From a virus (Duplodnaviria; Heunggongvirae; Uroviricota; Caudoviricetes): DNA of 64,000 nt. This document shows, piece after piece, positions 1,553 through 49,100 of the stretch. Both the position numbers and the translations under genes were made by a program. The notes below the pieces were generated by a model that made no database searches, had not been told where the DNA came from, and saw only the letters and a list, made by a program, of their open reading frames with translations. Each line of letters begins with the position of its first letter. Position 1 is the stretch's first letter. The stretch covers positions 1 through 64,000 of IMG/VR virus record IMGVR_UViG_3300017747_002194. The stretch is one strand, 5' to 3'.

Positions 1553-2770
1553 ATGAATTTAAAAAAAGTATTTATGTTAGGTGGAGCTGTATTAGCTCTA
1601 ATTTTATTAATCAGTTTTAATCCTTTCAGCTACAATCCAGCTGGATCTAGAACTTGTGTAACTCAAGCATCAGGTAATCAGTTTGTACAGTTTCAAACAG
1701 GTGTATTTTGGGCAGGATTCTTTGCTAAAGAAACAGAATGGAGTAATCAAATTTCAGTATCATATGTAGCTGATGAAGCAGATTATGATTTAGTAGATAA
1801 TACTGTAGAAATTGGAAAGATTAACATTCGTTTTAATGATGCAACAACTGCTAAAGTATCAGGAATTACTCAATATGTTTTACCATCCGGTGAAAAAGAA
1901 ATGTTGGAAATTCATAATACACATAGAACACCTGAATCATTAGTTAAACGTAGATTATCACCTTATACTCAAGAGTGTTTACAATCATCAGCTCAATTAT
2001 TAAGTTCTGAAGCACATTATTCAGGAGGTAGAGCTCAAATGGTTCAAGACTATTTAGATCAATTAAAAAATGGAGCTTTCTTATTAAAAGTACAAGAGAA
2101 TAATACTTATGATACTTTAGAAAAAGCTAATAAAAAGATCTATACTGTTGTAACCCAAGTAGATAAGAATGGTCAACCTAAGCGTAAATTTAGTTCTATT
2201 AAAGAATATGAAATTAGTGTAGGTGATGCTCAAATTACTGATGTAGATTATCAAGAACAAGTTGATAATATGTTAGCTAAAAAGATTGAAGCTAGTACTA
2301 AAGCATCTGTTTCTAAACAAGAATTAATGACTGCTCAACAACAGGCTTTAACAATTGAAGCTCAAGGTAAAGCACAATTAGTTAAAATTGAATATGAACA
2401 AAAGCAAGCTCAAACTAAACAAGTTGTAGCTGCTCAGACTCAAGTTCAATTAGCTCAACAGGATTTAGAAAAACAAGCTATTCAAGAGAAAGCAGCTATT
2501 AAAGAAGCTAATAAGATTAAAATCTTAGCTGATGCTGATGCTTATGAAAAACAACGTGCTATTCAAGCCAATGGAGCATTAGAACAAAAAATTGAAGCTG
2601 TAATCACCATTAATAAATATTGGGCTGATGCTTTTGGTAAATACCAAGGTAATATAGTACCTATGTATCAAACAGGAGGTACAACTTCTGGTAATGGTGG
2701 AGTTAGTTTTATGGAATTAATGAGTGCTAGAGCAGCTAAAGACTTATCATTAGATCTTAAAACTAAATAA
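1553..2770 (+). CDS. membrane-anchored protein with a long Q/A/E/K-rich coiled coil, possibly flotillin/SPFH-like
   Basis: N-terminal signal-anchor (VFMLGGAVLALILLISF). C-terminal about 150 aa of EAQ/KQA repeats resembles SPFH-family C-terminal coiled coils. The SPFH core itself was not recognized. Confidence 0.55.
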   Translation: MNLKKVFMLGGAVLALILLISFNPFSYNPAGSRTCVTQASGNQFVQFQTGVFWAGFFAKETEWSNQISVSYVADEADYDLVDNTVEIGKINIRFNDATTAKVSGITQYVLPSGEKEMLEIHNTHRTPESLVKRRLSPYTQECLQSSAQLLSSEAHYSGGRAQMVQDYLDQLKNGAFLLKVQENNTYDTLEKANKKIYTVVTQVDKNGQPKRKFSSIKEYEISVGDAQITDVDYQEQVDNMLAKKIEASTKASVSKQELMTAQQQALTIEAQGKAQLVKIEYEQKQAQTKQVVAAQTQVQLAQQDLEKQAIQEKAAIKEANKIKILADADAYEKQRAIQANGALEQKIEAVITINKYWADAFGKYQGNIVPMYQTGGTTSGNGGVSFMELMSARAAKDLSLDLKTK

Positions 2771-2908
2771 TCTTTCCTTCGCCAGGAAAATCTCCAAGAT
2801 ATATTACTAGAGGGTGATTCATAAAATACTCTAAAAAATATTTTTCTGCTTACCTGAATAGTCTAATCCATACTAAATGTTTACGGTAATAATAAATGGA
2901 TTTTATAT

Positions 2909-3304
2909 GGGGCTAGCCAGGTTTTTGCTCCTTTAATTAATAACTAATAAGCAAGTAGTGAGATGTTAACTATCACTTTAATCTATGTTTTCAAGCTTTA
3001 ATAGGCAATGTTGTAATAACCAACGAAGTAGGAGGCATCGCTGATGTTCTTGCTGTTGTAAAAGGAAGCTCAGCAAAAGTCATTAAATTGACATCTGCGC
3101 CAATTGCAGAAAAATTAGAGTTAGCAGCCTAATATTGGAAAGACGGTGCGTAAAAAGTCTTAAAACTACGGAGCGATGTTTTGTACATTTTATACGCTAG
3201 GAGTAAATGTAATATTCTGTTATAGAAGAAAAAGATTAACTAAACTTGTAGAAAATTAATTATGTGAATTAGAGGAAACGAGGGTTCGACTCCCTCCTAG
3301 CCTC
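2909..3304 (+). ncRNA. ssrA: tmRNA (ssrA)-like gene
   Basis: The 5' GGGGCUAG pairs with the 3' CUAGCCU acceptor strand (one G-U pair). A canonical T-arm GAGGG-UUCGACU-CCCUC (3280-3296) directly abuts the acceptor. An internal short frame ends ...A-E-K-L-E-L-A-A-stop (3106-3132), a tag-peptide-like ...LAA terminus. The total length of about 395 nt fits tmRNA. Confidence 0.45.
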
Positions 3305-3321
3305 CTTAATATTAAAAAAAT

Positions 3322-3798
3322 ATGAATGAAATATGGAAAAATGTAATAGATTATGAGGGTATTTATCAAATAAGTAACTTAGGAAATTTAAAAAATATTA
3401 AAACTAATAAAATATTAAAAGTAAATAATAAAAAAGAAAAGTATTTAAATGTAAGTTTATATAAAAACGGTAAACAAAAAACATTTTATATACATAGATT
3501 AATTGCTTTAATATTTATACCTAACCCTCATAAATTACCAATGATAAATCACATTGATGGTAATAAACAAAATAACGATATTCTAAACTTAGAATGGTGT
3601 ACTAATAGAGAAAATACTTCTCACTATTATTCAAATAAAAGTAATAAACTTCGAGGTGCTTTTTATATTAAAGAAACTAATAGATGGAAAAGTATAATTA
3701 TAGTTAATAATAAACGTATTAATTTAGGGCATTATTTAACAGAAATAGATGCCCATAATGCTTATGTTAAATATTTAACTGAAAATAATTTAAAATAA
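3322..3798 (+). CDS. HNH homing endonuclease (NUMOD4-like N-terminus plus HNH)
   Basis: YQISNLGNL (NUMOD4-like); HRLIALIF..NP...INHIDGNKQNN..NLEW.T..EN is an HNH motif. Confidence 0.85.
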   Translation: MNEIWKNVIDYEGIYQISNLGNLKNIKTNKILKVNNKKEKYLNVSLYKNGKQKTFYIHRLIALIFIPNPHKLPMINHIDGNKQNNDILNLEWCTNRENTSHYYSNKSNKLRGAFYIKETNRWKSIIIVNNKRINLGHYLTEIDAHNAYVKYLTENNLK

Positions 3799-3804
3799 AT
3801 CTTG

Positions 3805-3813
3805 CCCGGCGGG
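3805..3813 (+). terminator. short GC-rich hairpin (cccggcggg) just after the HNH gene
   Basis: An isolated GC-only palindrome in an otherwise AT-rich spacer. Confidence 0.3.
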
Positions 3814-3842
3814 TCCACTTAAACAATTAAAAACTAAATAAA

Positions 3843-4580
3843 ATGGCAAAAATTGAAATGGATATCTCTGAATATGATTCAATGAGAGAAAATAAAAAAC
3901 TTTTAGAAGAGTCTCTAAAGCGAGAACAAGAGCTTTTTAAAAAGATTGAAGATACTCAAAAAGAGAAGATTCAAGCTTTAGAAGATGCTAAAATGAAAGT
4001 TGTTAAAATTAATAAAAAAGTAATTGAAGAGCATGCTTTAACTAGAGAACAGAATTCTAGTGTAATTAGAGAAATAGCTCATCTTTTTGGTATAGATAGC
4101 CGATATATTAGATCTGTACATTCTTATGATCTTAATAGATTATGTGATATGCTGTTTACTAAAACTAAATCTATATCTGAATCTAATATTGAAACTGAAG
4201 TAATCGGATTAGATGAAATTAAAATCCAATTAAGAGAAGATATTAAATCTAAGATTGATGCGGATATTCAAAGAAAGTTAAAAGATTCAGAGATTATTCA
4301 ACAAAATCTTATACATATTGAAAACTATTTCAAATCTTTATCAGATGATTATACTAATTTACAAAGTAATAATAATAATATTATTGAGCAAAATAATAAG
4401 TTATTAGAAGAAAATAAAACTTTAAATGATAAAATCTCTGAACAAGAAATTAAACTAAAAGAATATGAAGCTTTTTCTAATAAAATACCTGCAGTACAAG
4501 ATATTTTAGATCAGGAAATAAATTTCTGGAATAGAAGTGCTGTAATTCAACAATTAAAAATGCTTTTTAACAAAAAATAA
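3843..4580 (+). CDS. hypothetical coiled-coil protein
   Basis: 245 aa, rich in E/K/L/I/Q; no enzymatic motif. Confidence 0.6.
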   Translation: MAKIEMDISEYDSMRENKKLLEESLKREQELFKKIEDTQKEKIQALEDAKMKVVKINKKVIEEHALTREQNSSVIREIAHLFGIDSRYIRSVHSYDLNRLCDMLFTKTKSISESNIETEVIGLDEIKIQLREDIKSKIDADIQRKLKDSEIIQQNLIHIENYFKSLSDDYTNLQSNNNNIIEQNNKLLEENKTLNDKISEQEIKLKEYEAFSNKIPAVQDILDQEINFWNRSAVIQQLKMLFNKK

Positions 4581-7059: not shown

Positions 7060-7132
7060 TAGGAAGTAGTTCAGGAGTAGAGCACCAGATTCATAACCTG
7101 GGGGTTCAGTGGTTCGATTCCACTCTTCCTGA
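7060..7132 (+). tRNA. tRNA-Met/Ile2 (anticodon CAU)
   Basis: Manual fold gives acceptor 7060-7066 / 7125-7131 (U1-G72), D-stem gttc/gagc, anticodon stem ccaga/cctgg around loop uuCAUaa, T-arm agtgg-ttcgatt-ccact, and discriminator A. Confidence 0.6.
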
Positions 7133-7137
7133 CAACA

Positions 7138-7375: not shown

Positions 7376-7732
7376 ATGAAATACAGAAAAGGAAAATATT
7401 ATAGTGTAGATTTTAGTAAAGAACTTCCAGAAGATCAGCTTGGGAAATATATTTGGATTTGTAATGAAAATAATAAAAGTCATTACTCTTTTAGAGTAAT
7501 AGAAAAAGGTTCTACTAATAGATTTAATGTTAATGACGATTCTTGTTTTAATAAAAATGATAGTCATGCTTGGTCAAAATCTAAATTAGCTACACCAGAA
7601 GAAATTCAATGGTTGAATCTTTGTATTGAACAAGATAAATATATTCCATTTGAAGAGGCTTTATTATTCTATACTCATAAATCAGATTCATCATTGGAAC
7701 CTATCTATAAAAAATTATTAAACATAAACTAA
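7376..7732 (+). CDS. small paralog family member (type 1, ATPEE-W domain) ending LEPIYKKLLNIN
   Basis: KLATPEEIQWLNLC...IPFEEALL core plus the shared C-terminal tail. Confidence 0.7.
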   Translation: MKYRKGKYYSVDFSKELPEDQLGKYIWICNENNKSHYSFRVIEKGSTNRFNVNDDSCFNKNDSHAWSKSKLATPEEIQWLNLCIEQDKYIPFEEALLFYTHKSDSSLEPIYKKLLNIN

Positions 7733-7737
7733 TTACT

Positions 7738-8073
7738 ATGAACAAATTATTAGACAAATACTACCGTATGCTTTACTTCTGTAAAGGAAAACCTACTACA
7801 TTAGGTCAAATGAGTAATTGGGAATTAGAAGGTATTCTATTACATATTGATAAATACCCTAAAGGTATTTTAAATGGATATGATAAACAAGAATACATTA
7901 ATGCTGTAGATTATATTCTTCAATGTAGAGCTAATTCTAAATCAGAAAGAATGAAAATTATTGAAACTAGGCATGCTAATAATGCATTAGATAAAGCTAA
8001 TAAATTAGCTGATGCAATACTATTAGCAATGCTTAAAACTGAACAACAATATAATAAGAGATTAGTATGTTAA
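7738..8073 (+). CDS. hypothetical protein (no family tail)
   Basis: 111-aa ORF within the tandem array. Confidence 0.5.
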   Translation: MNKLLDKYYRMLYFCKGKPTTLGQMSNWELEGILLHIDKYPKGILNGYDKQEYINAVDYILQCRANSKSERMKIIETRHANNALDKANKLADAILLAMLKTEQQYNKRLVC

Positions 8074-8372
8074 AAAAAGAAGAACTAATTACAGGAGAAT
8101 GTTATGTAAACTCTTATGGAAATATTTTTATATGGGGTATAGGAGATTCAACACATTATTTAGGTAATAGTGCTACAGAATATCATAAAGGTGGTGGTTT
8201 TTTTGATGGTGCTCAAAGATTAGCAACAATAGAAGAGTGTTGGTGGCTAGAGACATGTATAACAATAGGAGATTATATTGAATTTGAAAGGGCTATGGGA
8301 ACATTTAGAACACCAAAGCCTGATGCAGATAAAGATTTAGATATTATTTATAAAAAATTATTAAATGTATGA
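8067..8372 (+). CDS. small paralog family member (type 1) ending DLDIIYKKLLNV
   Basis: RLATIEECWWLETC...IEFERAM core; overlaps its neighbours at start and stop. Confidence 0.7.
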   Translation: MLKKEELITGECYVNSYGNIFIWGIGDSTHYLGNSATEYHKGGGFFDGAQRLATIEECWWLETCITIGDYIEFERAMGTFRTPKPDADKDLDIIYKKLLNV

Positions 8373-8713
8373 AACTACAAGACTGTATAGATGGTGAAAT
8401 ATATTATTGGGAGTCTACAAGGTTTAGGTATATCAATTGGTATAAAAAACCAGAATATCCTTCAGACTTAAATATTAAATGTTATATATCAATAGATAGA
8501 ACTAATTTTTCTTTTAATTCTGCTAGAAATACAAATCCTCAAAATATTAGATTAGCTACACCAGAAGAGAAACATTGGTTACTTTGCTGTGTAAAAGCTG
8601 TTGCATATATTAGTTTTGAAGATGCTTTACTATCATTTACACCAATTAGAGAACCAAATCTTGAAGAGATTAAAGAATTAGAACCTATTTATAAACGTTT
8701 ATTAAATATATAA
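8369..8713 (+). CDS. small paralog family member (type 1) ending LEPIYKRLLNI
   Basis: RLATPEEKHWLLCC...ISFEDALL core. Confidence 0.7.
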   Translation: MKLQDCIDGEIYYWESTRFRYINWYKKPEYPSDLNIKCYISIDRTNFSFNSARNTNPQNIRLATPEEKHWLLCCVKAVAYISFEDALLSFTPIREPNLEEIKELEPIYKRLLNI

Positions 8714-23124: not shown

Positions 23125-24130
23125 TAAGAAAATAATATTAAAAATAAATTTGCATAGTATTAAAATTATTTGTATATTTAATGAGTTAATAACTCGAATA
23201 TATAAATATGGAAAATAAAATTAAAAAATTAAATAAAGAAGGAAAAACAGATGTAGAAATTTCAAATATTCTAAATTTACCTTACTATAAAATAGGTAGA
23301 ATTAGAAAAAAATTACAATTATCTGTAAATTATAAACATGAAAATCTTTATATGTCTTCTCAACAAGAAGAAGCATTTATTGGTACATTATTAGGAGATG
23401 CTACTTTAGTCTTTAAAACAAAAGGTTCTAGATACCCATCATTTCAATTTTCTCATACAGAAAAACAAAAAGAATACTTTAATTATAAAGTGAATCTTTT
23501 TAAAACTCTTATGGGTAAACCTAAAATACATCTTTTAAAATCTAAATTTACCTCAGAAGAAGGTGTTTTAGTATATGGAATTCAAAGTTATAATATACCA
23601 TCTTTACTTAAATATAGAAAAATATTTTATCCAAATAATAAAAAGATTATACCCATTGATTTTATAAAAGATAAATTTTCTGAATTAAGTTTAGCTCTTT
23701 TAATTTATGATGATGGGTGTAAAGATAATTTGAATTATAAATTATCAACTTATTGTTTTGAAAGAGAAAATGTTTTAGAATTTTCCAAATTTCTTTATGA
23801 AAAATTTAATATTAAATCAACAGTACATCAAAATAGTGTTTTATATTTTAGTAGACAAGCTACAGAAATTATAACTAAAATACTACAAAAATATCCTGTT
23901 AAAAACATGCAATATAAAATAATAGTGTAAGTCCTCTTTAAATTCTTTTAAAACTGGAAAGTCTTTTAACTAAGATAATCAGTTACCAAGCTAGTGAATG
24001 GTGTAATAGTAGCTAGAAAGGTTCAACGACTAGTAGATAGGAACCTAACCAAATCTACCACGAAATAAGAACATCTAATATTAGATGATGAGATAGTCTG
24101 AACTGCAAATATAAATAGACTAAATTGCAG
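23125..24130 (+). mobile_element. group I intron carrying a LAGLIDADG homing endonuclease ORF
   Basis: Intron core elements R-like GTTCAACGACTAGTAGA (about 24020) and S-like GAGATAGTCTGAAC (about 24089), plus a P9-like hairpin ctgcaa...ttgcag ending in G24130. Exon 1 ends in U, and the frames rejoin at 24131 to give ...VIED|NIGIKS.... Confidence 0.5.
23208..23930 (+). CDS. LAGLIDADG homing endonuclease (intron-encoded)
   Basis: Motifs FIGTLLGDATL and ALLIYDDGCK. Confidence 0.85.
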   Translation: MENKIKKLNKEGKTDVEISNILNLPYYKIGRIRKKLQLSVNYKHENLYMSSQQEEAFIGTLLGDATLVFKTKGSRYPSFQFSHTEKQKEYFNYKVNLFKTLMGKPKIHLLKSKFTSEEGVLVYGIQSYNIPSLLKYRKIFYPNNKKIIPIDFIKDKFSELSLALLIYDDGCKDNLNYKLSTYCFERENVLEFSKFLYEKFNIKSTVHQNSVLYFSRQATEIITKILQKYPVKNMQYKIIV

Positions 24131-37145: not shown

Positions 37146-40100
37146 TTAACATTTAAATGGATTTTTACCATCATTAACTATTTTATTAACATCATCTCTT
37201 AAAGATTTAAAATCTTCAAAAGTAGTTGCATTTTTAAATCTTGTATTCATAATAGATCTTTCTTCTGGAGAAAGAATTGCATCAATTTTCTCTTTATTAT
37301 TTTTAACCAATTCTGTAACTACTACTTTCATTAGATTAGTTTTAGGATCAGCTACCGGCTGTGCTTTAGTTGTATTACCCATAAGAGCTTTCATTTTAGC
37401 AAGAGTAGCTTTTTCTTCCTCCAAAGATACTTCTTTTTCTTCAGATTCCAAAGAATTATCATCAATAATTTCAGCTTTTGTAGCATTAGGTACATTAGTA
37501 TCTTCAGTTCCTAAAGCTTTTTTAAACATGCTCATAATATCAGAAGCAGATTTACCACTTTTAGCTTTTTCCCCTAAATTTATAGGTGTAGATTCTTCAG
37601 TTTTATCAACTTCTTCAGGAGTTACTTGATCAAATAAAGCTTTAGCTGTATCATAAGTTCCTGGGAAATACACACTAACTCCTTTCATACCTATTTGTTC
37701 TAAAGGTTTGTAAGTAGCTTTTTCACCAACACCATAAGGATGTATTGTATTATGCGTATGACCATTAGTAGCATCAATATAATTTAAAAAATCATCTTGC
37801 TTACTAACAAAACCTGTAGCTTTATTTGTAAAAGACTCTAATTCAAAGAATTGATACTCTTCACCTATTCTCACTTTAATAAATTGTGGGAATTTAAAAG
37901 TAGGTTGTGCTGAATTTTCATTCTTAGTTTTCAGCATTACAGGGAAAACTTCTTTTAATTTACCCTTACTATCTTTAAATTCTTGCTCAGAATTAGTACT
38001 AACTTCAAATACTAATCTATCTCCATTCATTCTAATAGGTCCTTTCTCAGTAACATTAATCTTATGAGTATGCATAGCAGCATATGTAGTATTTACATCT
38101 GTGATATACATTTTTCTAAAATTATAAGCAGCTTGACCAAAATCAATACTTGGATTTTTAGCAACTAAACCTTTAACTAAATCATCTAAAGTTTCTGAAT
38201 ACTTATTAAACATATTCACCGGTAAATATTTAGCTACACTGTTATTCTTAAAAGTCATGTTATCTTTAACCATTAAATAGCTAAGCATATTATCTACAAA
38301 GTTTCTAGGAGTTAATCCAGCTTCATTTAATTGAGTTTGGTTATCATACCATAAAGATTTGACAGAATCTATTAATAAAGAAATAGTTTCATTACTTTCT
38401 TTTACAAAAGATTTTGTATCAATAATATTTTCTTTAATAGTAAAGTATTTTACAATATAGTTATCTTTAGTAGTAGGATTTGATTTTAATAATTCTAATT
38501 GACTAACTAAGTTAACTTGTCCTTCTTTATTTAATTCATTAAAAATTAAACCTAAATTTAAAGAGTCTAATCTCTTTTGAATAGCTTGCTTATTAACTTC
38601 TTTAGTATTTACATCATCTCTAAGTTTCTCTAAGTCATTAACATAAGATTTCACAGATAGGTAACCTAAAAATTCTCTACTTAACTCAGCAACATTATCC
38701 ACCACATTAGTAAATCTATCTTGTAAACTATCAAATAACTTACTAAACTCTTTAGTGAATAATTCAGTTTGTTCAATAAATATTTTTTGACCTACATCAG
38801 TACTAACTTGTAAAGCACGTTTAATATTTCCTAAAGTATTAGCATCATCTTTTAGTATTGGTAAAATGTCGATATGCGCTTGACCTACAGCTAATCCTCT
38901 GTCAGCAGTATTTAACGCTTTATTTAATTCAAAAGTGTCAATAGCTTTATGTAATTTTTGATTCATTACAGTAAATGAAGTTTCTAAACCTTGATTTAAA
39001 GTTAAGAAAGTATTTAATGTAGCCATTACATTATACTGCTCTTGGATTTTAACAAATTGATTTAAAGCTTGATATTGTACTTCTAAAGCTGTAGAATTAT
39101 TACTATCTCCTAATTCATTTTTAGTAAACTCTTTACCTAATAAAATATTTTCAATTTGTTCTAAAGTAACTTCTGTTAATTCAGGATCAATTTTAGATAT
39201 TGTTCTATTTACAGCTTCAATTTTATCTTTAGTAATCTCTCCATTATTTTCTAAAGAAACAATAGCAGAAGCTTGAGCATTAGCCTTGTTAAAAGATTCT
39301 TCAATCTCAGTTTTAACTTTAGATACTAAAGCTTTTTGAATTTTACCATACTCTTGAATAATAGGTAAGTTAATAAACTTAACAGCATTTTCAAAACTCA
39401 TACCTTGCATGATAAGTTCTGTAAATCCTCCTAATAATTCAAACTGAATATTTAATTCACCAGCAATAGGATCTTTAGCATTATCTGTAAATACGTTTAA
39501 TAAAATATTTAAGTTATTAGCTATACGCTCATTTTGTTTATTTGTGGCAGAATATGAACCACCAGTCTCACCAGCTATCTCAAATCTAAAAGCATCTTCA
39601 TTAAATTTAACTACTTTATCTCCAACTTTAGACATTAAAAAGGCAAACTGTTGGATCTTATTAGCTGCAATACCAATACCGTCTTTACCTGCAGAGTTTT
39701 TACTATTAGCATCATACTTACCATTAATATCAGAAGCTGACTTATTTTTTTGAGAAATAGTAGATTGTGTAGATTTAATAAAACCTTCAGATTTCAATTT
39801 AGGAACTAAAGCTTTTAATACATCTGTAGATGTAGTATTATTAGCAATCTCAGCGGTATGATTATTAGCTAACATCTTAATCATATTATCTAATGCTATA
39901 TTACTATTAACAGCATTAGGTTTTTTACCTTTATCAACAAAAGATTTTTCTGTATAAGGTAAATCATATTTTTTAGATACTTGCTCGTAATAAGTTTTTT
40001 CAATTATAGCTAACTCTCCTTTTAATCCTTGACTAGCTAAGATTAAAGGTTGTTTTTCTTTCTTACCAACTTCATCAATTTCTTTATCTATTTGCTTAAC

Positions 40101-43100
40101 AGCTTTTTTAATAGAGTTATATCTAAAGTCATTTTTTAATAATTGATTATAGTCTCTACTAAAATCTTTATCATAATTTAAATTATAAAATTTAAAAGCC
40201 TCAAAAGCTTCTTGAAGAGTTTTTTCTGTACCATATTTAATAGGAACAGTAGGAGCTTCTTTTCTATACCAGAAATATGACATTTGAATAAACTCAGAGT
40301 CAATATCAAAATCGGCTCCTGATAAGTGAACAATTTCTGATGGAAAAATACCTATACCGTTGTAATAATCTGGTAATAAACTAACTACTTTTAAAGACAT
40401 TGCTGATTGTTTATCACCTGTAGGAATACGGTATCCTAACATTTTTAAAACCTCAGTCATTTCAGGAGTAATAGTATCTCCTATTTTTAATCCATGTCTA
40501 GTTAATATAGTTTGTGATAACATACACTCACTATATTTTAAATCACCTTCTTCTACATTATATCTTAATGAAGACTCTTCGTATTTAGTAGTATCATTAT
40601 ATTTAGCAGGATCTTTAATTAAAGTATGGTGAGAAATAACTTCACCAGTTACTTTATCTCTAACAACTTTAACACCAGCATCACTAGCTAAAGATACTTT
40701 ATCTCCATTTACTTTTTGATTTAATACACCTTTACTAAAATAAGACAAAATAACTTGTTCAGCTTTAGTAATCATTTGAACCATGTTGTAGTTTAAAGGA
40801 GTATCAAAAAACTCTAATAATTGTTCATCAGCTCCACTAGCTGCTAAAGATCTTTTAACAACTTCATCTAATTGAGTTTTATCAATATTACCATCTGTAC
40901 CAACTTCTTTAATTACACGCATAGCACGTTTAAAAGAAGTATCTCTAGTATCAGCAATAGCTTCATTATACTTCTTTCTAATATCTCCTAATTTAACTCC
41001 ATTAACTACTTCATTATCTTTTAATTCAGAAGCAATTAAAGTTAAAATCTGACTACCAGTAACAATTTCTTTTTTACCAGTAGGAGTTTCTACTTGTAAA
41101 CGTTTATTAGAATTATATACTTTGAATCTAGATTTACTTAAATCTAAATCATCAGCTTGACTATCTTGAGGACTTCTTGTAGCTCCTTTAGATGCAGATT
41201 CTACAGCTAAATGATCTACTTCATGTAAATCCATATTATTGGCTAAATTATGCCAATACTTCATACCTGGTACAGGTTTATATAATTTAGTTAATTCTCT
41301 TACAGTGTTTCTATATTCTACAGATTCATAATCATCCTTAATCATTAAATCAAATATTTTATCTGTAAGTTCTGTAAACTTATCTACATCTTTATCTTCA
41401 ATGTATGAAATAGCACTTCTAATAAGTCCTAATTCAGACATTTTTAAATATTGTCCATTGATACCATCAAATACAATAGTCTTTTTAGAGTTTAAAGAAG
41501 CTAATGCTTCAGATAATGCTTTTTGAGCTTTATCTCCAATATTAACATTTCTAACAACTTTACCATCTACTTTCTTAGTAAATTGAATAATATCTTTATA
41601 AGTCTTTCTAGTCGCACCATCAACTCTACCTAATCTAAAAGCACCCATCATTAAATGGTACTGTGAAGAATAGGACATAGCGTCATTTGATGTATAACTA
41701 GCTATTTGATCTTCAGTTAAATTTAATACTTTACCATCTTCATCAGTAACTTTAGTTAATTTACCAGAAGCATCAAATTCAGGTTTTACTCTAACTAACT
41801 TATTATTAATTATTACAGTAGAAGTATATAAATTAATATCTTTAATAATAGCAGAGTTATGCGTACCTCTTCCATAATCTGGACCAGAAGCCATAGCTCC
41901 TTTATTACGTTTAGAAATATCTACTTTATCTTTTCTAGATAAGGCATAATCACCATCCATTAATTCATTTAATGAATTAGACATAATATAATCATTTATA
42001 TAAAATGAATATAAGAATGGGTCATAAGTTTCTTCTCCACCTTTTAATTCAGTAGTTAAGAATAAATGTATCTTAGCATCTTTTAAAGTGTTTTTAAATT
42101 CTTTAAATGAAATTTGTAAATACTTTTGTACACCATTATTAATAGCATTGATTTGTTCAGAAGTTAATTCTTTAATATCTGGATCTAAAGCAGACTTAAC
42201 TAAATTTTCATAAGCTTCATTACCCATAGTGTCTCTTAAATACTGAAACTCTGTAAAATTAAAAGCTCTTCCTTTTAAAGAATTATTATACCCTTTTAAA
42301 TCTCCAGGTTTTTTATCAAAAGCTTTCTTCTCTCTCTTAATTCTTTCCCACTCTTTAGTTACTTGAGTTAAGAAATATTCTTTAATCTTAGCTTGACCGG
42401 CAACAGATTTAACATCTATTTTAGGTAATTCAGCTACATATCCTGTAGAAGAAGCCTCATTTTGTCTGAATAAGTATTTACCAGTTTCAGTATTTCCTTT
42501 ATTGTGATATAGTGTAAGAGCACTTAATAAATAAGTTCTAGCATCAAAACTACCAAAAGTAACACCATCTTTAGTTTTACCATTCTTAACAGTAGTATCT
42601 CTAAAACCACTTAAAATATTAATTTTTAAATCTTTTAATAATTCTTTATGGTTAGTAACCAAAAAGTTATTTCTTAAAAAGAAAGTATTTTTCTTTTCAA
42701 CTTCAGTCAAGCCTTCACCTTTTTCTACAGACTCCCAATAAGAATCTTTCTTATAAAGTTCAGCTCTAGATAACACATATGAAGGTTTAATAATTTCATA
42801 TACTTTTTTACCTTCAGCATTAGTAAATGAGAAGTTAGCAATAGACTCATCAAATTTAGCATTATTCTCAGCTAATTTTCCTAATCTACCTAATACACCA
42901 TTCTCCTCATCAAATAAAGCTTTTAAATCTTTATTAATAACATCAATAATACTAAAGCCATCATTTAAAGCAGCTGCTCCAAACATTTTAAAATCCATAG
43001 GTTCAGTAGTATCATAGATACTAATAAATGCTTTATCTTTAGCAATTAAATCATCAGGCTTTAAAATAGCCTTTTGTTTAGCTAAAGATATTTTAATGTA

Positions 43101-46100
43101 AATAGAAGTTAAAGTAATACCATTAGCATCTAATGCTTTTTTAATTTCATTAGAAGCTTTATCTAAAGATACTCTACCTTTATAATAATTATTAACTATT
43201 TTATCTACATTAGAAAAATTATGTTGGAATTCTTTTATAGACTTTTCTCTACTAATAAATGTTACTCTATTCTTCCATCTCTCTAAAGAGATTTTCTTAG
43301 CATCATTTTTATTAGCATTATTCCAAGTATTAGCTTTTACTTTAGTAGGTTTACCATCTTTATCTTTAATCCAAGACTCTCCAATTAACACATCAATTTG
43401 TGTAGCTTTAGAGTTTTTAAAATTAGTTAATAAAGCTCTAGTAATGTTACTAGCTTCTGGTGTAGTAGGATAAGTAGTTGTTCTAGTTTCAGGATCAAAA
43501 GTAATTCCTAAATCTTTAATAATTTGCTCATAGAAAGCTTTAATATTAGAGTTACTTTCTGAAGCATCATATAATTTAGCAATCATTCTTTCTTCAGATG
43601 TATCAGCTAATACACTAGTCAATCCATTATATAAAGCAACTTCGTCAACTCCAACCTCTCTATCTTCATTAGTAATTTCATCTCTCTCAATTCTAGTTGT
43701 GAAAGCTACATATTTTTTAATAGTTTGTGATAAAGAGTCATGTCCTCCAGATAAGAATGAATCTTGTGATCCAAAAGTATCTTTCATATGAACAGCTTCT
43801 AACCCACCTTCAGTCTCTTCATTAACTTCTTCTGAAGCTTTGAAATTAAAGATTGATAACTTATCACTAACAGCACTTCTTAATACTTCATATGGTCTAA
43901 GCTTAACATTGTTCATATTATTCTTATCATATAAATATTTTTCAGAAGCTATTTTATTAGCTAGTTCTTTAGCTAACTCAGGATTAGATGTAAATAAACT
44001 TTCACCATAAGCTACTCCTTTAGTATCTAAATCTTCAATTCTTTTATTAATAAAATAATCTAATAATTCTTCATCAGATTTTAATTGACGTTTACCGGCA
44101 GAATCTTTTTCTTCTGAATAAGCATATTCATGTAAAGTAGGATCTCCTGTTTTAGCTTTATAGATTTGAATAGCAAAGAAGTTAATAATTTTTCTAGAAT
44201 CTGAAGCATTGAAAAATCCATTCTCTTGAGAATTATTCTTCTTAGGTAATAATTTAAATACAGTATCATTCTCTCCAAAATAAGTATTGGTAATTTGTTC
44301 AGCATTAGCAAATTTACCCTTTAGAATGTTATCAAATAACATATCTAATTCAGTCCCAATATTAAATAACTCTTTAAAGAAATTTTTAATCTTAAAGAAT
44401 AATTGTTTTAAAATATTACTAGTCTTTTCTTGATTTTTATTCATAGAGTAATCCATGAATTTATCAGCCATAAATTCTTCTAATACTAAACTCTCTAATT
44501 CCTCTTTAGATTTATTAGTATAGTTAGCAACAGTACCTCTTAATTTATCAACCTCTTCTTGTAAGTTTTTACCAGATTTTGTAAATTCTGAATAAGCCGC
44601 AGCATAATACTTTTCAATTTGAGCATCAGTTAACATTGTTCTGAATACAGCATGGAAAGCCTCATGATAAGCTGTACCTGGCTTACCTTTAGTTTTATTT
44701 AAGTAAATAACTTTGTTTTTAAATGCTCCATAAGGAATACCTTTAACTTTTAAGTTATTTGCAATAGTTTTAATGTCTTCAATAGATATAAATCTAGGAA
44801 GAATTTTTTGAATTTCATCAAGCTCTGCTTGAGTTATACCAGTAGACTCTTCTAATCCAATAGAAAATACTGGATCAGGATCAGATTCTTCATTAGTGTT
44901 TTGTTGTTGTTGATTTAATAAATCCTTAAAAGAAGTAGCTTCTTTTTGAGCTTGCTTTAATTTAGCAAGAATACTAGTAGCTTGCTCTTGCTCTTTAGTA
45001 TCTTCTTCTAAAGCAGCTAGTTCTGCATCATATTGTTTTAAAAAATCTTCAAGAGTATACGTTACTCCATATTTTTTTCCAAGTCTTACTTGTTCTGCTG
45101 ATACTGTATTCTCTAAAGGAATAATACCATTTCCAGAAGATTTATCTTCTTTAGAATATTCTACCTTTTCAAAGTTTTCAATATCCTCAACTAAGTTTTT
45201 AGCTCCTAAACTAAGTAACAAATCTTTTTGAGAACCATACTTTTCATTAATATTTTTTAGTTCATCTAAACTAATATTTTGATAAGTACCTGTTTTATCA
45301 TTAAGTTTTGTTATCTCCCATCTAATATTTCCTCTAGCATTAGCTATATAAAAAGCAGCAAACTGTTTTCCTTTATAAGTAAATCTAAACATAGATTCCT
45401 CTTGGTCAAAAACTACATGAGTAATTTCTCCTTCATTAATTTTTATAGGAGTAGATAGTTGAGCACCTGCAATTTTTATAGCTTCTGATAAAGTAGGTAT
45501 TTCATTTTCTGGAGTAGGATTATCTATACCTGCTATTTTATTTTGAAGTTTGTACTTTACAGATTGTCTAACAGGTACATTTTTATCTTCTTGTCTTCTT
45601 CTTTCTATATCAACTTTAACATCTGTAATAGTTTCAACAGGTGTGTTAGCCACAGAAGTTGGTGTATTATTAGGTAAAGGTTTAGCTTCAGCATTAATTG
45701 AAAACTGTACTCCATATTTAAATAAACCTTTAGGATCCACATAAACTTCTAACTTATTCATATCTACTTCACCCTCAGGTGTTAAGAAAGATGAATATCT
45801 AATATTCTTAGCAGAGAATTTAACAGTTTTATTTACATTACTATCGGCTAATTGATCAATTACATAATCTGCAGATAATAATGAAGGGTGGATATTATTT
45901 AAAATATTTATTCCTTTACTATTTTTCATTTGTACAGGAGCTGAATAAGATCCTGAATTTTTATCTTTAGTTTGTAAAGTAAAATAAAAAGTATTTGTTT
46001 TTACTGAATAGTTTAATTGAAACTTTCTAACTACTCCTTTAACAGGTTCTAGTGCAAAGAAAATAGTCTCATTAAATTTATCAATAGCATCTTTAATAAC

Positions 46101-49100
46101 TTTAGAGTCACCTTGAGAATTAGTAATTGTATTAACTACTTCATCAAATGATTCTTGTGCATTAGGATTAGTTTTAGTTTTAACTTTAATAACATCTGTT
46201 CTACCATCAACAGTAACTTCAACATGTAAACCTTGAGCAATATCTGATTGTAATTCAGACATTTGATCTATAGCTTCTTCTATAGAAGGATCGTATTCTC
46301 TAACTTCAGTCTCACCTTCTAAATTAATATCAGTAATACCTTGCTTTAATTTAACAGTATCTGCTGTAGATACTAACATATCATAAGCTTCACCTAAAGT
46401 AGGTTTAGTATCATCTTTTAATAAAGTATTTAAATGTTTAGTTAAATCTAATTGAATAACACCAGCTTGATATAAATTATTAATCTCTTCTAAAGATTTA
46501 ATAGAACCATCGGGATTATAAAATAGAGCAGAGATTGCTTTTTGTTCAGGAGACCCACCATATTTAGAAATAGTAGAAATGTTAACATTTGCAATTTGTA
46601 ACATTACAAACCCATTAACTTCTATAAAATGTACAAGAGATTTATCTTCTTTTGTAGATTTAAAATATTCTAAAGCTTGTCTAACATCATCAAAAGAATC
46701 TAATTGATTTTCTTCATTAGTTCTATATTCACCAACTAAATGTTGTTTACCTTCTTTATCAGTATACAATACTTGAGTATCTCTAGCTTCTGCAGGAGTA
46801 TTTAACATCAAGTGTTTATCATTAGTAGTTTTAACTTCTTCCTTAGGTTTTTGTTGAACAGGTTGAGTAAATCCAAAAGTAGCTGCCGGAATATTACTTG
46901 TAACATCTGAAGCATCTACTGGAGGAATATTTGTATTATCTACAGGAGTTTCCGTAGGAGTAGTCTCTACAGGTTCTGTTGTAGTAGATGTAACAGGAGA
47001 AGTTTGAGTTTCTTCAGCTGGTGTAGGATTTTCTGTAGGTTTTTGTTCTTCATTTTCTATAACTTCTTGAACATCTTGTAAATCTTTAGCTTTAGCTAAA
47101 TCATAAAATTTACCCCATAAATTATCTGAAGCATTTAAAAATATAGCTTGATTTTTAGGATCTTTTAATGCATTATAAGTTAAAGTAAAATCAATTTCTC
47201 TAGATTTTAAATTTTCAACATCATCTAATGCTTTTAATATTTCTTCTTGATGTAATGGTGAAATACCATCAGCTTCAGTAATTTGTTTTTTAAATAGTTT
47301 TTTACCTGCAGCATCTAGTTCATTATAAGCTTTAGCAAAAGATTTAGGATCCATTGCACTATACATCAACATATTATGATCTTTAGACTCTTTATTTAAA
47401 AGAGCTTCAGCAAAACCTATTGAAGTAAAAGCTTCTGAGTTCTCTTGTAATATTTTAGTAACCTTAGCTGCAACTTCAGTCTTACGCTGTTTAGCATTTT
47501 CTAAACCTTGTGCAGAATAGATTAATAATTCTTTAACATCAGGATGTGCTTCAGGAAATAATTTAGTTACTTGATTATACGTTTCTTCTATTTTAGCTAG
47601 TTTATCTAGTCTATCTTGTACATACTTTTGTACAGCACCTTTACCAGTAAGTTGTTCGATACTAGCTTTATTTTCTACATTAACATCAATACCATAGACA
47701 TTTTTTAATTCTTCTACAGTAAGATCTTTGAAATTATTTAATTCTTCTTTAGTATCATTTAATTTACCATTTTGTAATCTGTTATAAGCATATGAAAATA
47801 ACATATCTTCATTAGCATTATGATAATTAAAATCATTATTCTCATCAATAGCTTGATCTTTAATTTCAGTAAGATTAGCAGATCTTACAAAATTATCTAC
47901 AAACTTTTTTCTTAAATCCTCTACTTTATATTTATTTAAAGACTCAACAGCTTGTGCTGTAAGTTTATCTTCCGGATTAGTGATAAATTCATCTTTAAAA
48001 GCTTTTCTACCTTTACCAACTAATACCATACCTGGAGAAGCAATTCCTGCAGATAATGCTCCAATAATACCAGCATGAATACCTTCTTGTGTAGTATAAG
48101 CTTCAGCCATACCTTTAGTAAAAGAATCTAAGAAGTTAGCTGCATTGGGATTATAATATTTATTTACATAGTAATCTTCAGCTGCTTTACCAATACCAAA
48201 TTGTAAAATCTCTTGATTACCTTCTGATAACATAGGTACACCTATCTTACCAGCTCTATATCCTAAATTAGCATACTTACCTTTTTCAACAGCTTTCCAA
48301 GTTTTAGTAGCTTCATCAAAAAAAGTGGTTTTATTAGCTATTTTAGCAAAATCATTAGTTTTATTTCCAAATAAAGCTTTACCAAAAGTTAACCAGTTGT
48401 CAGCCATAATAACTGGTAAGTTCATACCAAAGGCCATATCTCCTGCTTGCTCAGACATCATCTTAGCATAAGCTAATTCTCCTTCTGTCATAGACTTAGG
48501 AGAACCATCAGGATTGGTAGTTAACTTTAAATAAATACTTTTTTGAGCTTCACGAGCTTCAGCACCAGCTTCTCCTGTAGCTGACATTGCAGCTATAGTA
48601 CCTTGTCTAATACCATCTTTAATTTGCTTTTTAGTAGCAGCATTGGCTACAGATTTTAAACTTTCAGTAGCTCCTTCTTTAACCGCATTAGCAATCATTG
48701 TAGCTTCTTCAGCAGTCTGAGCTGCTCCCATAGCTTTACCAAATATTGAAAAAGCTTTAGACCAAGCACCTCCTGTTAAACCGGCTCCAATAGTAGTACC
48801 AGCTCCACCTAGAATATCTCTAAATAAAGTATTAGCATGCCAAAGTTTAGCTAATCCTTTATCAGTAGATTCTTCTTTATCAGAATAGAAAGGATTATTT
48901 TTATCAACAGCTTCATTGAACTTATCTAACTGTTGAGTTAAATCATTATTATAATATGAATTTAAAGAAGGATCCCATTTACCATTTTTATCAGTATGTG
49001 TTAATGCAGCGATAGTTCCATAGAATGGGTTAGCAATACCTTCAGCAGCAGTGCTTAAAGTTTTACCAAGCATATTAACTAAACCATTACCTGCTTTATC

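Follow-up and report, generated by a model that had tools for sequence, protein, structure and literature searches.

Does a stretch of phage DNA that default annotation leaves empty between two protein genes encode a transfer-messenger RNA (tmRNA) of its own, and could such an RNA still be charged with alanine? The question arises in a 64,000-nt stretch of an uncultivated caudovirus (IMG/VR record IMGVR_UViG_3300017747_002194, positions 1 to 64,000), to which we refer as the window. There, an SPFH/Band-7 gene (1553-2770) is separated from the HNH endonuclease gene at 3322-3798 by a gap without open reading frames (ORFs) of 551 nt by the ORF limits (2771-3321), given as 550 nt in a first-pass annotation made from the letters alone. 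That annotation read the gap as a phage-encoded tmRNA gene with a short tag frame, and the tmRNA reading is now supported by a full-length match to the tmRNA covariance model and by tmRNA relatives in the same gene context. We conclude with good confidence that 2909-3305 is a phage-borne one-piece tmRNA (ssrA) gene, belonging to a long-tag family of uncultivated AT-rich phages that are distantly related to the Cellulophaga phi4:1/phi17:2 myoviruses.

Phage tmRNA is already a known kind. What is new here is a very long tag under selection, the loss of the alanine signature together with a tRNA-His-like end, and a history that involves an intron and endonucleases.

The tmRNA gene and its tag reading frame

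The RF00023 covariance model matches 2909-3306 over its full length (model positions 1-374; 43.6 bits, E 5.4e-16; Infernal, 701-nt search). Relatives were reached through the neighbouring SPFH protein, and sister phage contigs were then fetched; L-numbers designate contigs or loci of relatives and controls, including related uncultivated phages. In the closest syntenic relative, L023 (SPFH protein 87 % identical to that of the window), the tmRNA scores 70.3 bits, which passes the RF00023 cut-off, and is 91-92 % identical to the window over the first pseudoknot (PK1) and the tag. At the same locus L001 (SPFH 86 % identical) carries a tmRNA called by both ARAGORN and Rfam (38.8 bits), the tmRNA of L022 scores 28.8 bits with RF00023, and that of L002 is split by a group I intron. 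Synteny around the tmRNA locus is kept in at least five phage contigs. A family motif, scanned against IMG/VR, yielded 14 loci and 13 additional contigs; ARAGORN recognises 12 of these loci as tmRNAs.

Default annotation tools, namely ARAGORN and Rfam at the gathering score, both overlook this gene. The Rfam scan of the window at the gathering threshold returns a tRNA-Met alone and no tmRNA, because the score is 3.4 bits too low. ARAGORN, proposed at first pass as a check alongside Infernal, calls nothing on the window or on the sub-region. This silence is uninformative because the program also misses the canonical relatives L023, L002 and L022, as well as six in-silico variants of the window with a repaired acceptor; the odd acceptor described below was dropped as its cause on the same grounds.

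The predicted RNA is about 397 nt long (Table 1). Its tRNA-like domain comprises a 7-bp acceptor stem, a 5-bp T-stem with a UUCGANU loop, and the P2 helix. When trimmed to this domain, all 16 family sequences fold to acceptor stem, P2 and T-arm, and compensatory changes are found in 13 of the 24 consensus pairs across the 16 members. Pairs of P2 covary, as do those of the T-stem, whose first pair is GC in 8 sequences, CG in 4 and AU in 4. In the minimum-energy fold of the full 397-nt RNA the tRNA-like domain is closed, and of PK1 only the first hairpin appears (AGUGA/UCACU, 2957-2961 with 2973-2977). CCA is not encoded at the 3′ end. Most of the elements picked out at first pass are retained: the T-arm at 3280-3296 is present, CUAGCCU (3297-3303) pairs with GGGCUAG (2910-2916), and the AU-rich strands near 2934 and 3257 form a long P2 helix in the minimum-energy folds of both the whole RNA and the trimmed domain. 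The supposedly typical 5′ GGGG start is lost, as its first G (2909) falls at position -1 when the stem is anchored on the T-arm.

Table 1. Features of the tmRNA locus in the window
Feature	Position	Strand	Remarks
SPFH-domain (SPFH/Band-7) gene	1553-2770		
Conserved block ahead of the tmRNA gene, which may be its promoter or 5′ leader	2853-2906	+	97-98 % identity to L001 and L022
tmRNA (ssrA) gene, one-piece	2909-3305	+	5′ end G2909 or G2910; 3′ end through C73 (3304) and C74 (3305)
Acceptor 5′ strand, GGGGCTAG	2909-2916	+	G-1 (2909) and G1-G7 (2910-2916); eight contiguous pairs with 3297-3304
P2 helix, 5′ strand	2929-2956	+	ends in invariant GCAAGU; pairs with 3244-3276 in folds
PK1 region and leader ahead of the resume codon	2957-3003	+	91 % identity to L023
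Tag reading frame	3004-3132	+	resume codon GGC 3004-3006; 42 codons; stop UAA 3130-3132; tag GNVVITNEVGGIADVLAVVKGSSAKVIKLTSAPIAEKLELAA
Putative PK2-PK4 region, RNA body after the tag	3133-3243	+	RF00023 positions ~190-320, low posterior probability; 52-74 % identity to L023
P2 helix, 3′ strand	3244-3276	+	begins with invariant ACUUGU; folds and covariation
T-arm, GAGGG-UUCGACU-CCCUC	3280-3296	+	seen directly; T-stem pairs covary
Acceptor 3′ strand, CTAGCCTCC	3297-3305	+	CUAGCCU (66-72), then C73 (3304) and C74 (3305)
HNH homing endonuclease gene	3322-3798	+	Pfam NUMOD4 3.8e-12, HNH_3 2.9e-8; PHROG HNH endonuclease 4e-40
Relic: last 12 nt of a group I intron (aaataaatcttg) and tmRNA 3′ exon CCCGG-CGGGUCC-A-C (CCCGGCGGGTCCAC)	3793-3818	+	26 nt, identical to L002 8557-8582

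The resume codon was placed at GGC 3004 by covariance-model alignment, and the tags of relatives begin with GN at the homologous place. The frame that follows runs to a stop directly after its ...LAA end. At first pass the ending ...APIAEKLELAA-stop had been recognized correctly, but its start was set one base off (3098, the exact span being 3097-3132) and the frame was taken for about 11 residues, when it has 42. The same peptide, ..ITNEVG..AD...SAKVI..T....ELELAA, recurs in four other lineages (L023, L002, L011 and L012) with 39-42 codons. Across lineages, synonymous divergence (pS) of the tag reaches 0.6-0.75, the ratio of nonsynonymous to synonymous divergence (pN/pS) is 0.25-0.47, and indels are in frame. 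The pooled in-frame pN/pS is 0.38 (0.37 in the N-terminal half and 0.39 in the C-terminal half), and the other two frames give 1.19 and 1.67. As the in-frame ratio is low in both halves, the whole frame is read as protein.

A second tag type of 32-34 residues, GN(N/K)DSSLGSIQDLK(Y/H)ALANN.L...EEL(V/ELQ)AA, is found in L001, L022, L009, L010, L017, L018 and L020. The usual tmRNA tag has about 10 residues (PMC11915505). In 69 bacterial control tmRNAs, fetched by a shared motif, tags have 8-28 residues, mostly 9-11, and the window tag is longer than all of them. Several other long-tag families (21-33 residues) appear on AT-rich contigs in a further sample of 83 tmRNAs on IMG/VR contigs. Examples among L233-L343 are AEDIMSIPTSLTRG...AELAIAA (26-29 residues), GKNKNRVVAFSPKAEQLALAA (21) and AKTAKYKGHISARASLVEMTASVA (24); about half of this sample has ordinary 9-residue tags and may represent host genes at prophage ends. 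The window thus belongs to a phage tmRNA family with tags of 30-42 residues under protein-level selection, against a bacterial norm of about 10. Such long, selected tags suggest that the phage tag probably does more than supply the ...LAA degron.

The acceptor end and its possible charging

Anchoring the stem on the T-arm fixes the acceptor register and leaves no alignment freedom. The window pairs are then G1·U72, G2-C71, G3-C70, C4-G69, U5-A68, A6-U67 and G7-C66, followed by C73 and by C74, the latter at the same place as the C74 that follows A73 in all 15 relatives. None of the alanine identity elements G3·U70, G1-C72 and A73 is found in this register. An extra encoded G (2909) at position -1 can pair with C73 (3304), which gives an 8-bp stem like that of tRNA-His, and the minimum-energy fold uses this pair. 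The eight contiguous pairs have a stem energy of -32.5 kcal/mol and the 7-bp stem one of -30.4 kcal/mol. A slipped register with GGGG/CUCC, G3·U70, a bulged C and a U discriminator has -29.1 kcal/mol. Only in the T-arm-anchored register does the 5′ strand align base for base with L017, L020 and L012 (xxxxxxG-CC-AGG); aligned on the following CC-AGG motif, it is one base longer than theirs. Among IMG/VR tmRNAs with the same P2 motif, C70-C71-U72-C73 occurs in none and U70-C71-C72-A73 in at least 120. In two bacterial controls, L117 and L129 (from Saccharibacteria and Ktedonobacteraceae genomes), one extra U separates the T-stem from the 3′ strand of an otherwise canonical acceptor.

The unusual 3′ strand is not an artefact of one assembler, because it is identical in two other assemblies, L032 and L033 (JGI 3300017707 and Logan SRR10520816, which may come from the same sample). 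Look-ups with small antisense ORFs found no independent copy of the 5′ strand. The two ends of the acceptor probably belong together, as no other family member shares the palindromic CUAG/CUAG core of its stem. The assembly breaks at 2746/2747 and 3051/3061 (ends of L110, L111, L032 and L033) omit the end of the SPFH gene, the upstream block and the 5′ half of the tmRNA. That these breaks are shared fits several co-existing alleles with a common PK1-tag module.

Several observations weigh against a working tmRNA gene. The RF00023 score of 43.6 bits is below the gathering cut-off of 47 bits, and the alignment through the pseudoknot regions has many non-canonical pairs and low posterior probability, pseudoknots being outside the scope of the folding tools used. 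The acceptor 5′ strand (2909-2916) lies outside the other assemblies, which break at 2746/2747 and resume at 3051/3061. In the sister phages L003-L006 neither ARAGORN nor Rfam finds a tmRNA at the locus; the gene is therefore dispensable and could be decaying. No SmpB-like ORF was found in the 64-kb window (the query being an E. coli SmpB sequence), so that SmpB would presumably be the host's. Finally, G1-C72, G2-C71, G3·U70 and A73 are present in 15 of 15 relatives and in 68 of 68 bacterial controls, and the window differs from them at G1·U72, G3-C70 and C73. The third acceptor pair is described as ‘completely conserved as G-U’ in tmRNA (PMC3985003), and the closing pair is G:C in all tmRNAs but one Carsonella lineage (PMC4131195). 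With the alanine determinants missing, the RNA would by standard rules be no substrate for alanyl-tRNA synthetase, and trans-translation by the window allele is not assured.

One could go further and deny the locus a gene of its own, taking it for the leader of the HNH gene with a tRNA-like terminator, for a piece of the host's ssrA acquired at an attachment site, or for host contamination. The HNH start codon does lie only 16 nt past the end of the RNA, a 14-nt tmRNA 3′ fragment is present at 3805-3818, and 3′ pieces of ssrA are indeed found in phages that use the gene as their integration site (PMC9004378). However, the match is to a full-length tmRNA, the same gene occurs without HNH in L023, L001 and L022, tags of this family are confined to phages and greatly exceed bacterial tags in length, and both GC content and synteny are those of the phage. 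The 14-nt fragment is a relic of an intron-containing allele and not an attachment site, because it is joined to the last 12 nt of the L002 intron. We regard this family of explanations as extremely improbable, and its HNH-leader form, raised at first pass as the alternative that could overturn the tmRNA reading, is ruled out by L023, which has the tmRNA and no HNH gene.

For the phage-borne tmRNA gene that we favour, the sequence is compatible with charging by alanine through a slipped, bulged stem, by histidine through G-1:C73, or by no amino acid. An uncharged RNA would be either a decaying pseudogene or a competing RNA that sequesters the SmpB of the host, thereby damping host trans-translation. 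This is a real possibility, if on balance a doubtful one: the universal alanine determinants are gone, sister phages lack the gene, and the locus has been rearranged repeatedly (relic 3′ exon, HNH gain, module swap). Phage DS6A carries a tmRNA with the tRNA-like domain only, and RNAs of this type are strong inhibitors of tmRNA whether or not they can be charged, perhaps because they titrate SmpB (PMC4131195, PMC11915505). Random decay would, however, be expected to break pairs, and here eight of eight acceptor pairs, the T-arm, P2 and the 42-codon frame are all intact. The intact tag counts only weakly against decay, because its module is 91-92 % identical to that of L023 and may be a recent import. 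By its loss of G3·U70 the allele provides a natural experiment on the need for alanine in trans-translation, or on the use of uncharged tmRNA by phages as a decoy for SmpB. Continued charging with alanine would require G2909-C3305, G2910-C3304, G2911·U3303 and G2912-C3302 with a bulged C and U3306 as discriminator. The Rfam model aligns the ends in just this register, and the 5′ GGGGCUA and 3′ UAGC(C)UCC are the tRNA-Ala/tmRNA consensus bar one extra C, so that a single insertion could explain the present state of the acceptor; the two controls with an extra U indicate that bacterial tmRNAs tolerate an additional base between T-stem and acceptor. We nevertheless consider such slippage unlikely, as it costs 3.4 kcal/mol relative to the contiguous register, yields an 8-bp arm plus a bulge, and leaves a U discriminator with no C74 after it, against A73-C74 in every relative.

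The third option, a natural histidine-accepting tmRNA, would have rescued proteins carry His before the 42-residue tag. Bacterial RNase P leaves an 8-bp acceptor helix on tRNA-His, and histidyl-tRNA synthetase (HisRS) recognises this helix. Nameki et al. (1999, J Mol Biol 289:1) reportedly obtained a His-accepting E. coli tmRNA. The window has G-1:C73, G1·U72, G2-C71 and G3-C70 with C74 placed as in relatives, the contiguous 8-bp register is the minimum-energy one (-32.5 against -29.1 kcal/mol for the slipped stem), and every departure from the family consensus preserves base pairing. According to PMC4357726 and PMC3985003, HisRS relies mainly on G-1:C73, recognises this pair in minihelices too and charges them through it, and the specificity of an engineered E. 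coli tmRNA was once changed in vitro from Ala to His. Set against this, the signature comes from a single lineage and is absent from motif-matching IMG/VR tmRNAs, at least 120 of which are canonical; the 5′ G run is seen in no other assembly; and G1·U72 is foreign to tRNA-His. Histidine charging would also depend on the host's RNase P keeping G-1 and on the rules of the host's HisRS, and a dispensable gene beside a homing endonuclease can simply gather changes. A natural Ala-to-His identity switch by G-1:C73 and G3-C70, maybe fixed as the altered 3′ strand also shields the allele from the adjacent HNH endonuclease, is therefore a long shot. If true, it would break a rule that holds in about 97,000 catalogued tmRNAs.

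If the phage-borne tmRNA acts as its family does, it would be transcribed from the conserved block just upstream, trimmed by host RNase P and 3′ nucleases, and completed by the host CCA-adding enzyme, which would be needed because CCA is not encoded. SmpB would bind it, and the charged RNA would be delivered to ribosomes stalled on broken mRNAs. Translation would resume at GGC 3004 and add GNVV...ELELAA, that is, 42 residues plus the residue carried on the RNA. At UAA 3130 it would stop, freeing the ribosome and marking the product through its ...LAA end for host proteases. The phage may plausibly benefit from a continued supply of free ribosomes while, in the infected cell, defence RNases and the nucleases of host and phage leave many mRNAs truncated.

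The endonuclease gene, the intron relic and the phage

The adjoining HNH gene, already noticed at first pass, is no incidental neighbour of the tmRNA gene, as the locus is a hotspot of homing endonucleases and introns. Its product joins an HNH domain to a DNA-binding module, and the gene is lacking at this site in L023, L001 and L022. In L023 the tmRNA is followed directly by the ortholog of window ORF 3843-4580. Paralog-like copies of the window HNH occur elsewhere in L001 and L002. All 76 HNH-related IMG/VR loci are at most 50 % identical, and none of the 30 that were scanned has a tmRNA as neighbour; HNH relatives were dropped as a guide to the donor allele for these two reasons.

In the sister phage L002 the tmRNA gene (7448-8582) is split after the seventh T-loop base, that is after CCGGG-UUCGAUU, by a group I intron (Rfam 78.3 bits at 7818-8075) with a 181-aa HNH-like ORF on the opposite strand (7979-8524), to which the window HNH is unrelated. 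The relic in the window overlaps the HNH stop codon and lies exactly where the tmRNA 3′ end is expected relative to the next gene. Its exon part consists of the T-stem 3′ strand, the acceptor 3′ strand, A73 and C74, and L112 contains the relic as well. The pairing partner of the relic would be GGGCCCG and not the window 5′ end. A spliced gene that uses the relic as its 3′ exon was rejected, as it needs GGGCCCG and a CCGGG T-stem and the window has neither. The T-arm of the window gene is uninterrupted; the intron's last 12 nt and the 3′ exon alone survive, and no Intron_gpI match to a group I intron core was found in 3200-3900 even at E up to 10. No report of an intron-form tmRNA gene in a phage was found in the literature.

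Identity of the window tmRNA to L023 changes along its length, from 62 % at the 5′ end to 91-92 % over PK1 and tag, 52-74 % in the 3′ body and 70 % over T-arm and acceptor. GCAAGU and ACUUGU, two motifs invariant in the family, mark the limits of the exchanged PK1-tag module. The region upstream is composite too, being L023-like at 2764-2835 and then L001/L022-like over the conserved block 2853-2906, which is 98 % identical to L001 and 97 % to L022 over 54-61 nt with diverging flanks. The 22-nt core of this block occurs once in the window, and the block gives no sigma-70-type promoter match. On these comparisons the window tmRNA allele is a mosaic, with a PK1-tag module near that of L023 and tRNA-like ends from an unsampled lineage. 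The HNH gene and the relic of intron and 3′ exon show that the tmRNA gene sits in a homing-endonuclease hotspot, which probably drove this mosaicism. As a candidate idea, the change in the acceptor strand may confer immunity to the endonuclease encoded next to it. The tmRNA gene, the intron-split sister allele and the relic 3′ exon together illustrate how homing endonucleases and group I introns remodel a structured RNA gene module by module.

At this locus the sister phage L003 has a tRNA-Met (7420-7493) and L004 a tRNA with anticodon UUA (8265-8336), which would read the UAA stop as a UAA suppressor. With no tmRNA in L003-L006 and other tRNAs in L003 and L004, the site is a variable slot for RNA genes. 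Two other loci hold the tmRNA inside large tRNA arrays, with 36 tRNA genes in about 9 kb in L015 (1081-9836) and 24 in about 6.5 kb in L019 (125-6589). The only tRNA of the window is the tRNA-Met (CAU; 48.9 bits), placed at 7060-7132 by the Rfam scan and otherwise listed at 7060-7133.

The GC content of the window is 26-32 %. One arm carries replication genes (family A DNA polymerase, helicases, Prim-Pol and 5′-3′ exonuclease) and the other very large virion-type ORFs, among them a 4060-aa ORF without Pfam match at 37146-49328 on the minus strand, flanked by large ORFs of 1149 aa, 1637 aa (PHROG virion structural matches), 719 aa and 735 aa. Searches of 50,697 GenBank phage records at the DNA level returned no sequence match to the window. 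A conserved 696-aa window protein is 68 % identical to its counterpart in an uncultured 462-kb phage and 52 % to those of Cellulophaga phages phi4:1 and phi17:2, which are the nearest cultured relatives by protein match; the stretch of phi4:1 inspected, part of its genome only, contains no tmRNA. A crAss-like phage, suggested by the 4060-aa ORF and the two-arm gene layout, was dropped as an idea in view of these best protein matches. We infer a Bacteroidota host. The P2 motif was abandoned as a basis for host assignment, because it occurs in tmRNAs of many phyla and is not host-diagnostic. A second homing endonuclease gene (23208-23930, LAGLIDADG_2, E 2.4e-30) stands directly after a DnaB-like helicase gene, and the phage genome carries several mobile endonucleases.

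Comparison with known systems

With the bacterial one-piece tmRNA (RF00023; E. coli SsrA) the window RNA shares the T-arm GGUUCGANUCC, P2 with GCAAGU/ACUUGU, the PK1 hairpin, an internal frame with resume codon, ...LAA C-terminus and stop, and a length of about 397 nt. It differs in its tag of 42 residues (usually about 10, and 8-28 in the 69 controls), in lacking G3·U70, A73 and an encoded CCA in the T-arm register, in having G-1:C73, and in being carried by a phage.

Functional work on phage tmRNA is, to our knowledge, limited to inhibition tests. Mycobacteriophages and Bacillus phage G have ssrA genes (PMC4131195), as do huge phages (PMC7162821). Phage tmRNAs are rare, with a gene in about 2.3 % of the genomes of isolated phages (PMC9004378). 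They have been proposed to sustain the translation machinery that the phage has taken over (PMC4131195, PMC9004378, PMC7162821). Like the reported genes (those of the mycobacteriophage Bxz1 group and phage G, the two-piece genes of Melnitz and pelagimyophages, and those of huge phages), the window has a complete ssrA with no other signs of host DNA. Unlike them, it comes from a different phage group, the relatives of Cellulophaga phi4:1/phi17:2, and combines a one-piece tmRNA with a very long conserved tag, a deviant acceptor, and linkage to an HNH gene and an intron relic.

The likeness to bacterial tRNA-His lies in the pairing of G-1 with C73, the 8-bp helix and G3-C70 in place of G3·U70; the 1:72 pair is G·U in the window and not G-C. 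Whereas the His-accepting E. coli tmRNA is a laboratory construct, the window allele is natural.

In intron-form tmRNA genes of bacteria the main site of group I introns is in the T-loop, after position 7, and the endonuclease genes reported in these introns are of LAGLIDADG types (PMC11915505). The sister phage L002 resembles them, with an intron after T-loop position 7 and an endonuclease ORF inside it, whereas the window gene is uninterrupted and without an intron core. The endonucleases of L002 and of the window also depart from the bacterial pattern in being HNH types, unrelated to each other. Like free-standing phage homing endonucleases (T4 Seg/Mob type, I-HmuI-like HNH), the window HNH has NUMOD4 and HNH_3, is intergenic and polymorphic, and has mosaic flanks. 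Unlike them, it lies where an intron once was, and it may therefore originally have been intron-encoded.

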